Virus record (IMG/VR): IMGVR_UViG_2690316166_000011
Length of the DNA stretch: 6,396 nucleotides
Reading direction: 5' to 3' (one strand)
Source of the DNA: a virus
Taxonomy: Duplodnaviria > Heunggongvirae > Uroviricota > Caudoviricetes
Below, piece by piece: positions 1 through 2,113 of this stretch. The notes beneath the pieces were generated by a model that had not been told where the DNA came from, searched no databases, and worked only from the letters and a program-made list of their open reading frames with translations. The stretch's first letter is position 1, and each line of letters starts with the position of its first letter. The translations under genes and the position numbers were made by a program.

Positions 1-2113
1 TAACTCGGTGGCCAGTTTTTGTTGACCACTTCACTTTGCGTATAGAATGTATCTACTAATTTAGTACCGTCATAGATTTTAATAACGTAATACTTGAAGT
101 ACTCACTAAATGATCGGTTATTCACTCTGATATCTTTTTGTGAATCCCAGGCAATATNNNNNNNNNNNNNNNNNNNNNNNNNNNNNNNNNNNNNNNNNNN
201 NNNNNNNNNNNNNNNNNNNNNNNTTTATTTGTCAGTACTACACGCGTTACCGCAGGTAGTGCAAAGTTGAATGTTGGAACAATGCCAGTTAGGGAAAGCT
301 TCTTGGATACCAGCCCTAAGTTGTTGTAAGCCTCTACCGAAAAGTCGTAGCTTGCAGTATCAGACAATCCAAATAATTCATAATCAAGCTTCTGTACGCC
401 AGTCNNNNNNNNNNNNNNNNNNNNNNNNNNNNNNNNNNNNNNNNNNNNNNNNCCCGCATACGTCCAGGTACTGGAACCGTTAAGACGGTAGTAAACATAG
501 TACCCACGCAGATACGGATCTGGTGAAGCATCCCAGGTAAGATCCACGATTGAACCAGAAGTAGTATTCCCCTTACGTACTGCCTGTAGGTTCGTTGGCG
601 GTAGTACCTGTAGTTCAGGGAAGTTAATTACCCCACCAGGCGACCAGATACCCGGATCAATACCATCATACATTGCATCAGGTGCTTCTACTGCCGTGAT
701 GGTTACATAGCCAACGTTCTCTTGATCGGTGCTGATATCTTTATTGAGTACTTTAAATTTGCCTGAGATAGCGAGTTCTTCATTGCTGACATTGATCGCA
801 TCCCATACTTCGAGATCCCAACCTTCACTTGTGGTGAAGCTGATAGTACGCAGGGCATACTTAGCCTTGAGTACATCAACGTTAGCCATTTTTGCAATCA
901 CCTCTTGATCATATGACCATGAGTAATCGCGTGATAATGCTATGACCTGTCCATCATGCTGTACTGCTTCATCCGTAGTGATATCGGAAGGGATACGTAC
1001 TACGTCAGTGGTGTACATCGATTCAGGGTTAGTAAACTTGCAATCGACTACGTTGAAGTAGTCAGTACCGCCAGAAGTAGAAACCTGTACCGCCCCTACC
1101 ATGTTACGCTCATCAAATGAGGCTACGGATACCGATTTGCGGTCTGTGGTAATACAGATTTGTCCGGCATGTACATACATGATGCCGCCAAATGACTGAC
1201 AGATATTTTCAATATTATCTTTATAGGTTTTTTGATAACTGATAGCACCATTAGCATAATATTCAAAAGCATCACAATATGCTGCGGTTTCTGCAAACGT
1301 ATCGGTATTAATCAATGATGGATCAATACCCATACCATAGATTGAATTTGTTAAGTAATCATAGATAATTGAAGGAGGGTTACTACTTGCTTTATAAGTA
1401 CCATCAACAAAATCATAAATCACCTGCCCTTTCATTTCTACAGTTAAAGCGAATTGATCATTAACAAGAATATTATTTTCTAATGAATCTTGAGTTTTTA
1501 AGATAACGGTACTGATACTAACAATACCCTTACCAAGAAATTTATTTGTCCATTTCGAACCAGCATATTTTGCAGCAAGAGTTTTAGTACTCGTATAGTC
1601 ACCACCAAATCGTACTTCTAATTGCAAATAGTTCTGGTACTTCGCTGCAATACTTTCTTTAGGTACTACACCCTCTGCTGTAATCGGTACTGCAAGTACT
1701 GGCTCATTATCAATATAGATTTGCTCGATATGCTTTTCTACACCAGCATATGCTACAGCCTGTTCTGAGAATAAGTACTGAGAATCAGAATTTGGTACGT
1801 TGTACCAGGCTACTATGCTTCCGGTTAGGATGAAGGAACCGCCTGATACACCATTTTTATGTGGTAGTTCTCCACCGTATATAACGGGTAATCCAGTAGT
1901 TGGTGAAGTACTTCTACTTAGTGAGTCTGCTACATCACCGTATCCAGAAACCCCGATTTGACCTAACATAGAACTTGCAACTAATGACAAAGATCCGGCT
2001 GCTGCACCCCAACCTATTGCTGCTAATGCTGTACCTCCTGAAAAGTACACAGCAGCCGCGACGACAACTGCCGTAATTATGGCTCCAAAAAAGCCCCCTA
2101 AACTCTTACCCAT
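1..2113 (-). CDS. Tail tip / host specificity protein (lambda gpJ-like) with N-terminal gpI-like glycine-rich hydrophobic segment; 3' end beyond left window edge; N-gaps at 158-223 and 405-452
   Basis: ATG at 2113-2111 with SD AAGGA at 2123-2127. [32 protein letters not shown] matches the lambda gpJ region LWDMLTHPRYGMGKRLGAADVDKWALYVIGQYCD. An FN3-like segment ([36 protein letters not shown] ... [15 protein letters not shown]) follows, as in gpJ. Left of gap 158-223 a different minus-strand frame is open to the window edge ([51 protein letters not shown]), resembling gpJ FWFSEKQIADIRQV. The TGA at 122-124 is therefore probably a gap-induced frame artifact. Confidence 0.75.
158..223. other. 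N-run (assembly gap or masked sequence), 66 nt, inside the J-like gene
   Basis: Run of n characters. The minus-strand reading frame differs on the two sides. Confidence 0.95.
405..452. other. N-run (assembly gap or masked sequence), 48 nt, inside the J-like gene FN3 region
   Basis: Run of n characters. The frame appears preserved across it, with protein-like sequence on both sides. Confidence 0.95.

Follow-up and report, generated by a model that had tools for sequence, protein, structure and literature searches.

A predicted counterpart of the C-terminal half of lambda gpI at the N-terminus of a J-like phage tail tip protein

The subject of this study is a J-like tail tip protein encoded on the minus strand of the IMG/VR virus record IMGVR_UViG_2690316166_000011, a 6,396-nucleotide stretch of Caudoviricetes DNA (the whole of this stretch is called the window). 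It was found that the N-terminal ~110 residues of this protein resemble, in profile comparisons, the C-terminal half of the lambda tail assembly protein gpI. In lambda, this C-terminal half is supplied in trans; here, the J-like protein probably begins with the equivalent module itself, which probably acts as a plug tethered in cis. The module spans codons 1-112 (1778..2113, minus strand), as judged from the open reading frame (ORF), hhalign alignments, intermediate sequences, and an excess of synonymous substitutions. The original prediction, made from the sequence alone, had stated that codons 1-101 (1810-2113) of the J-like ORF closely resemble the C-terminal part of gpI, and that no separate I-like gene lies between a gpK-like gene and the J-like gene, which would represent either a natural I-J fusion or a different evolutionary solution. 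The peptide quoted there is the exact start of the minus-strand ORF that begins with the ATG at 2113, and the gpI stretch quoted there matches the real gpI at residues ~100-133 and 190-203.

The homology is supported mainly by profile comparisons and by intermediate sequences. When the window subfamily was aligned by hhalign with the family of gpI C-terminal halves, the probability was 94.6% and the score was 48.1, to be compared with a column-shuffle null of 12.9 +/- 2.4 (maximum 23.7). Might this resemblance be compositional? A Gly/Ala-rich N-terminus unrelated to gpI, for example an inner-membrane signal-anchor for J during assembly, could in principle give a similar hydrophobic profile. 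However, when the shuffling was confined to the hydrophobic block, the observed score of 37.3 was still far from the null of 12.9 +/- 2.9 (maximum 24.9), and 0 of 100 shuffles reached it (z ~8.5). Thus, the order of the residues is similar, not just their composition. With a family of 14 fused N-termini, the gpI C-half was aligned over 90 colinear columns with 92.7% probability (score 43.3 versus 11.4 +/- 2.4), and the non-hydrophobic part of the 14-sequence family scored 28.4 on its own against a null of 8.9 +/- 2.1. Overall, the hhalign probabilities were 92.7-94.6%, with z values of ~8-15 versus column shuffles.

Intermediate sequences also link the window protein to gpI. The J proteins of Escherichia phage DCP80 and of the IMG/VR locus L043 align with the window protein over the full length at ~30% identity, with the tblastn alignment to the DCP80 J protein beginning at residue 60. 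Their N-termini match phrog_32, the gpI family, at positions 102-199 of 203 (E=1.5e-4 for DCP80 and 1.3e-3 for L043), and the DCP80 N-terminus also matches phrog_4554 (E=4e-5). A profile of three N-termini (DCP80, L043, and L047; profile A3) was compared with 177,635 PDB sequences, and lambda gpI was the only protein found (8iyk_I, E=6e-5, residues 106-210). The same profile also matches a 90-residue gpI fragment devoid of the first helix, H1 (E=0.0025). These results argue against a compositional resemblance, since the PDB set includes thousands of membrane proteins and the matches to phrog_32 and phrog_4554 cover the whole C-halves. Furthermore, the LPxxYG hairpin lies at an equal distance from the helices in both proteins, and the alignment runs colinearly into J.

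The colinearity extends across the I/J junction. The first 330 residues of the fused family were aligned with a lambda/Rhizobium-phage target in which I(96-223) and J(1-400), in lambda numbering, were concatenated, and one colinear hhalign path was obtained (97.2%, E=3e-11). Window residues 2-110 fall on the gpI C-half and residues 111-140 on gpJ ~20-54 (TQLLSVIDAISEGPIEG...LLNSTPVL), while in the fused family nothing corresponds to the final ~15 residues of gpI or to the initial ~19 of gpJ. Moreover, the profile of PHROG 31 (J) contains an I-like block at positions 164-276, which directly precedes the position of the lambda J start (263).

On the other hand, several results weigh against this assignment. 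BLASTP of residues 1-110 against lambda gpI was not significant (E=0.20). No gpI family was found at the window N-terminus in Pfam, NCBIfam, and PHROG scans, and no gpI PHROG was matched. In HMMER searches of the PDB, the profiles A2 (22 sequences, dominated by the window subfamily) and A5 (14 balanced sequences) gave only spurious sub-threshold matches, with neither gpI nor a megatron chain among them. The search of 1.84 billion representative proteins with the window-subfamily profile likewise gave no link to gpI. In the non-hydrophobic part of the window subfamily, a 9-column LPxxYG motif alone aligns with gpI (13% probability, z ~4); the full-length homology therefore rests partly on transitivity via relatives that are 29-45% identical. 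The C-terminal "TAPI-C" feature, that is, the plug and the beta strands with LPVLYGEMRVGS, would accordingly be recognized through these relatives and not directly. The column-shuffle nulls may also be lenient for Gly/Ala-rich helices. Lastly, in the AlphaFold2 (AF2) monomer model, the confidence (pLDDT) is below 35 for residues 1-74, which gives no structural support for the placement of the module. The pairwise result, the lack of a gpI match with A2, A5, or the window sequence alone, the low-complexity Gly/Ala content, and the unconfident AF2 N-terminus are also the points in favor of a compositional resemblance. Weighed against the order-specific signal and the A3 result, a compositional origin is very unlikely.

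Pfam cannot decide on the likeness to gpI because PF06805 (Lambda_tail_I) covers gpI residues 14-97 alone, which form the ubiquitin-like (Ubl) domain; lambda gpI itself scores 100 bits. PF06805 was absent at E<=0.1 from the J-like protein and from every other window ORF tested. Thus, the Pfam check proposed with the original prediction yielded PF13550 in the J part and no gpI family at the N-terminus. The "close resemblance" to gpI holds far above chance for profiles and fails for pairwise comparison, and the I-like segment corresponds to the C-terminal half of gpI, the Ubl domain being absent. In summary, homology of the first ~110 residues to the gpI C-half is supported by the profile comparisons, with a hairpin link that is partly transitive for the window subfamily. 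The module falls outside the gpI family as defined by Pfam, since it lacks the Ubl domain, is not encoded by a gene of its own, and is not accompanied by a JAB protein.

Four elements can be distinguished in the module, all on the minus strand. Both helices are hydrophobic and rich in Gly and Ala. Helix 1 (residues ~6-27, 2033..2098), with a 19-residue Kyte-Doolittle mean of up to 2.18, aligns with gpI 100-122 and is the counterpart of gpI H1. Helix 2 (residues ~30-50, 1964..2026) has a hydropathy peak of ~1.5 at residues 37-38 and is in register with gpI H2. A Ser/Thr-rich polar linker follows (residues 51-75, 1889..1963), which lies on the colinear hhalign path and has an RSTSP-x-TG motif conserved in the family; judging from position only, it would be the counterpart of the gpI plug segment 159-175. 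The last element is a beta-hairpin, LPVIYGG... (residues 76-110, 1784..1888), which is, from the alignments, the probable counterpart of gpI LPVLYGEMRVGSRVVSQ. In the window subfamily, the hairpin carries a specific loop insertion of ~13 residues, which is missing from the shorter-looped relatives. In the AF2 monomer model, residues 9-24 and 30-50 are helical and residues 77-79 and 94-98 form strands, with low confidence. J proper starts at residues 111-140 (1694..1783), which align with lambda gpJ ~20-54 (TQLLSVIDAISEGPIEGPVDGLKSVLLNSTPVL).

Is the single reading frame real? A frameshift or a missed stop codon might have merged a small I-like gene with J, and the window does contain runs of N and a gene damaged elsewhere by an insertion sequence (IS). 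However, the region 453-2113, which includes the N-terminus studied here, is unmasked and intact, and it is 100% identical to two independent IMG/VR contigs. Forty-six IMG/VR loci were recovered. In 45 of them (29-100% identity), the J-like ORF opens with the N-terminal segment, contiguous with J, while the 46th, L049, matches residues 129-185 only. The same one-piece arrangement was found in five phage genomes, namely Escherichia phage DCP80, Vibrio phage henriette, Roseobacter phage CRP-406, Pseudomonas phage Lebethron, and Salmonella phage PMBT28. Among the 1.84 billion representative proteins, the window-subfamily profile had 17 significant matches, none of which was a gpI-like protein of ~200 amino acids. 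Eight of them were long (510-2324 amino acids), and all eight carry the match N-terminally; it begins at residue 1-6 in seven and at residue 15 in the 510-residue P0146. A word-indexed homolog search returned only short fragments. The survey of the I/J boundary in related phages that the original prediction had called for thus gave an uninterrupted frame in 45 IMG/VR loci, five phage genomes, and eight long representatives, down to ~29% identity.

The substitution pattern points in the same direction. In codons 1-55, the window differs from its relatives by 14-29 synonymous and 4-12 non-synonymous substitutions (about 3:1). Therefore, the hydrophobic segment is translated and is under purifying selection, and since the one-polypeptide state is conserved under such selection, it is natural and not a frameshift artefact. 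There is no linker and no start codon context at the I/J boundary. The chance that the single ORF is an artefact is practically negligible. At the start of the J-like gene, the TAA stop codon of the upstream gene, which occupies the position of lambda K, lies within ATGGGTAA and forms an 8-nt overlap with the J ATG. A TAAGGAA ribosome-binding site is conserved ~13 nt upstream of this ATG. The overlap leaves no room for a separate I gene, and the module is in frame with J, as had been claimed.

The K-position gene encodes a 134-residue DUF6950 protein (2106..2510, minus strand; PF22262 at 34.6 bits with a cutoff of 27; phrog_2134), which has an NlpC/P60-like core and lacks a JAB domain. DUF6950 weakly aligns by hhalign to the NlpC/P60 part of lambda K, with the catalytic-Cys "DC" motif in register, and the K-position protein of PMBT28 also touches NLPC_P60. 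The neighbor described as "gpK-like" thus consists of a single DUF6950 domain and does not have the JAB domain of K. In roseophage CRP-406, the gene order is the same, and the genes are annotated as "minor tail protein L" and "DUF6950 family protein". The DUF6950 K-position proteins of the window (2106-2510) and of L001, L002, and L050-L052 keep a G-x-N/T-D-C motif at the catalytic Cys of lambda K. Most DUF6950 proteins, however, have no His where lambda K has its "NH" motif, so the K-position proteins may be non-catalytic.

It could be imagined that the fused polypeptide is a precursor. Cleavage around residue ~110, for which the DUF6950 protein might be responsible, would yield a free gpI-like peptide and J and hence a mature tip like that of lambda. 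In favor of this, J is always directly preceded by a papain-fold-like gene, processing of gpI has been proposed for lambda (PMC1779556), and residues 1-80 of the hub protein gp14 of Shigella phage Sf11 are not modelled in its published structure (PMC12724387). However, the N-terminal helix of the gene transfer agent RcGTA and of R4C was modelled within the megatron chain (PMC7296036, PMC10276861), and no linker separates the hairpin from J in the fused family; the tail residues of lambda I and the head residues of lambda J are simply missing. The lack of the "NH" His in most DUF6950 members also speaks against such a protease. Cleavage is therefore considered unlikely, and an uncleaved, tethered module is preferred.

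The domain composition of the K-position and I proteins was then compared between fused and split loci. Ten fused loci were compared (the window, L024, L027, L043, L047, DCP80, CRP-406, Lebethron, PMBT28, and henriette). In all 10, the gene directly upstream of J encodes a protein with DUF6950 as its single domain, so that JAB is missing, and the Ubl domain of gpI is missing as well. In both split loci, lambda and Rhizobium phage RHph_Y2_11, K consists of Prok-JAB and NLPC_P60, and I has PF06805. It is a tentative idea that Ubl on gpI and JAB on gpK form a matched accessory pair, present only where the plug is a separate protein. The sample comprises 12 loci that were not randomly chosen, which weakens this comparison. 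If the idea holds generally, the fused proteins show by a natural example that the C-half of gpI is all that the tip requires of this protein, the Ubl/JAB pair of lambda would deliver or process a free membrane-active peptide, and the long-unclear roles of gpK and the gpI N-terminus would be directly testable.

How might the tethered module work? The colinear homology, the conservation of a single frame under purifying selection, the absence of Ubl, and the absence of JAB from the K-position gene were observed directly, while the following steps are modelled on the cryo-electron microscopy (cryo-EM) structures of lambda and RcGTA/R4C. In the assembled trimeric tip, three N-terminal modules would lie inside the cone. 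The beta strands of each module would add onto the J hub domains in cis and not in trans, and the helices and the linker would close the lumen under the C-terminus of the tape measure protein (TMP). Upon receptor binding, the hub domains would swing out, and the hydrophobic helices would be released and insert into the outer membrane. This insertion would open the way for TMP and DNA. The accessories of lambda, Ubl on I and JAB on K, would not be needed because the plug is tethered to J. A plug and membrane-insertion function is likely, though wholly by analogy, which counts against the proposed role.

The remainder of the J-like protein (34..1693, minus strand) contains hub domains and fibronectin type III (FN3) domains, and two N masks (158-223 and 405-452) shift the apparent frame in this part. 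PF13550 (Phage-tail_3) was detected at 29.1 bits (cutoff 23), and phrog_31 was matched with E=4.4e-44. With the AF2 model (mean pLDDT 55), Foldseek gave eleven matches at E<=0.001 (E 2e-4 to 1e-12): the hubs of T5 (pb3, two entries), DT57C, Chi, JBD30, lambda (gpJ, four chains), T1, and Sf11. The modelled protein thus appears to have the hub fold (HDII-HDIV) in common with the solved siphophage hubs. In the IMG/VR locus L004, which is 100% identical to the window outside the masks, the intact J-like protein is 1100 amino acids in length and has PF09327 (Phage_Tail_Tip) near the C-terminus (72.2 bits). The J-like protein is a member of the gpJ-like hub/central-fibre family.

A separate observation concerns the Sf11 hub. 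Residues 151-200 of gpI weakly match residues 87-136 of Sf11 gp14 (PDB 9occ_E, 828 amino acids; E=1.1), just after the unmodelled residues 1-80 (PMC12724387). A gpI-C-like module has probably gone unrecognised at the N-terminus of this J-like hub, too.

The J-like gene of the window is not complete. The identity to L004 stops at window position 33, and an IS3-family element contributes positions 1-33, its terminal inverted repeat (minus strand, TGAAGTGGTCAACAAAAACTGGCCACCGAGTTA). Megablast matches identified this end (1..33, strand not assigned; terminal TGAAGTGG) as IS911/ISEc52-like. The J-like gene is interrupted by the element at ~codon 669 of 1100, which is why the PF09327 part is missing from the window J. 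As a result of the insertion, this prophage copy is without the tip-fibre and receptor-binding part of J, and the J gene of this genome is inactivated downstream. The N runs of the window are not length-true: compared with L004, 48 N (405-452) stand for 3 nt, 66 N (158-223) for 37 nt, and 248 N (5422-5669) for 165 nt. A stop codon at 122, which would give a protein of 663 amino acids, was considered as a real truncation and rejected, as N runs of untrue length create a false stop; the alternative frame past it reads on as good protein sequence. In L026 (IMGVR_UViG_3300012241_000017), the J-like ORF from 3932 has just 392 amino acids, whereas close relatives have ~1070-1100; this copy may be truncated or frameshifted.

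All tail genes of the window are on the minus strand, in the order TMP, distal tail protein, L-position protein, DUF6950 K-position protein, and J-like protein. The TMP gene (4275..6325, with a putative start coordinate) appears as two ORFs solely because of the N mask 5422-5669; it is contiguous in L004, and its product is similar to the TMP C-termini of DCP80 and henriette. The TMP C-terminus is the expected partner of the plug. The distal tail protein (3133..3690) was assigned by phrog_1302 (E=8e-17) and a weak match to the DTP-pb9 B-domain, and the gpL-position tail-tip (hub 1) protein of 207 amino acids (2510..3133) by phrog_2048, "tail protein" (E=8e-24). The L-position protein (2510-3133) has one Cys and therefore no 4-Cys iron-sulfur cluster as in lambda gpL and RcGTA g13. 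The 588-nt gap between the TMP stop codon and the start of the distal tail protein gene is occupied by an opposite-strand ORF of 190 amino acids (3692-4264, plus strand), which has an N-terminal hydrophobic segment and no Pfam or PADLOC match. The gap varies among related loci, with lengths of 30-60 nt (empty), 588 nt, ~680 nt, or ~890 nt (with other content), and in the 588-nt version of L008, the ORF is 63% identical to that of the window. The gap looks like a variable hotspot for morons or cargo genes.

Joining of I-type sequence and J in one polypeptide is not new. Iyer, Burroughs, and Aravind noted in 2006 that TAPI is sometimes fused to TAPJ and that JAB is missing from most NlpC proteins encoded in these operons (PMC1779556). 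In their description, TAPI consists of a Ubl domain, a Gly-rich linker, and "TAPI-C", and the JAB domain of K was proposed to process I (PMC1779556). The window protein resembles these TAPI-TAPJ fusions in combining I-type sequence with J. In contrast to the TAPI of 2006, which is defined by the Ub-like domain, it has only the Gly-rich region and a putative "TAPI-C". With these fusions and the equivalent iris/penetration domain of RcGTA/R4C (PMC7296036, PMC10276861) on record, the one-piece arrangement is not a new evolutionary solution; many long-tailed phages and gene transfer agents are built in this way. As for a natural I-J fusion, the single polypeptide is natural and conserved, but the word "fusion" implies a direction of evolution, and lambda could equally represent a split, elaborated state.

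In lambda tips (PDB 8IYK/8IYL/8K35/8XCG/9E7M), gpI residues ~101-223 form H1, H2, a plug (159-175), and strands added onto the gpJ sheets, and the gpI trimer sits in the cone beneath the C-terminal coiled coil of gpH (PMC11101478, PMC10721106, PMC12617516). Binding of LamB is followed by an outward movement of the hub domains, opening of the plug, and the departure of H1 and H2, whose insertion into the outer membrane was proposed (PMC11101478, PMC10721106, PMC12617516). The module of the window and the gpI C-half (~96-223) seem to share the order of elements, that is, helix 1, helix 2, a polar segment, and an LPxxYG-x-R/T-G beta-hairpin, and both have a genomic place after the K-position gene and directly before the J sequence. 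By analogy, the expected role would also be alike, namely a lumen plug under the TMP C-terminus with predicted membrane insertion (PMC11101478). Unlike in lambda, the module is covalently part of J and not a separate protein of 223 amino acids, and it has no Ubl domain (PF06805). It is also without the ~15 residues that end gpI and the ~19 that begin gpJ, the hairpin has the ~13-residue loop insertion, and the K-position protein lacks JAB. T5 provides another case, in which the trimeric plug domain of pb3 (and of the related DT57C hub) shuts the tip lumen where gpI does, with a proposed outer-membrane contact (PMC10721106). T5 pb3 is the top structural match of the window J part, while no sequence relation was detected.

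What do these comparisons add to the searchable literature? The additions are modest: an explicit sequence bridge from the gpI C-half to modules at the N-termini of J-like or megatron-type proteins, the absence of an annotation for the module in current domain libraries, and a clean, small-sample covariation of Ubl and JAB. Since PF06805 misses the functionally visible half of gpI, such modules on J-like proteins go unannotated. This locus is of value mainly for annotation: its J-like protein should be described as a hub/central fibre that begins with a gpI-C-like plug/penetration module, and its gene as IS-disrupted. Because Ubl and JAB covary with the split state, the function of gpK and of the gpI N-terminus could be approached by a simple genetic test.

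The megatron proteins of the Rhodobacter capsulatus gene transfer agent RcGTA (g15) and of roseophage R4C are further close parallels. Like the window J, they have hydrophobic N-terminal helices, predicted to insert into the membrane, in the same chain as the hub domains HDII-IV (PMC7296036, PMC10276861). The gene order is also alike, with TMP, the distal tail protein, an L-like hub, a peptidase-like protein of ~135-150 amino acids, and a large hub/fibre protein (PMC7296036, PMC10276861), and the proposed role of a gate that becomes a pore (PMC7296036, PMC10276861) may by analogy apply to the window J. No megatron chain was found at E<=10 in the three PDB profile searches (A2, A3, and A5), and the main texts searched contained no literature linking gpI with the iris domain of megatrons. 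In contrast to RcGTA/R4C, the window module is longer (~110 versus ~46 residues) and has two long helices and a gpI-type hairpin, the L-position protein has one Cys and no Fe-S cluster, and the C-terminal part is lambda-like (Phage_Tail_Tip). The sequence bridge would thus join two things that have been described separately, namely the lambda gpI plug, known from cryo-EM structures from 2023 on, and the "iris/penetration" helices of the megatrons of gene transfer agent type.

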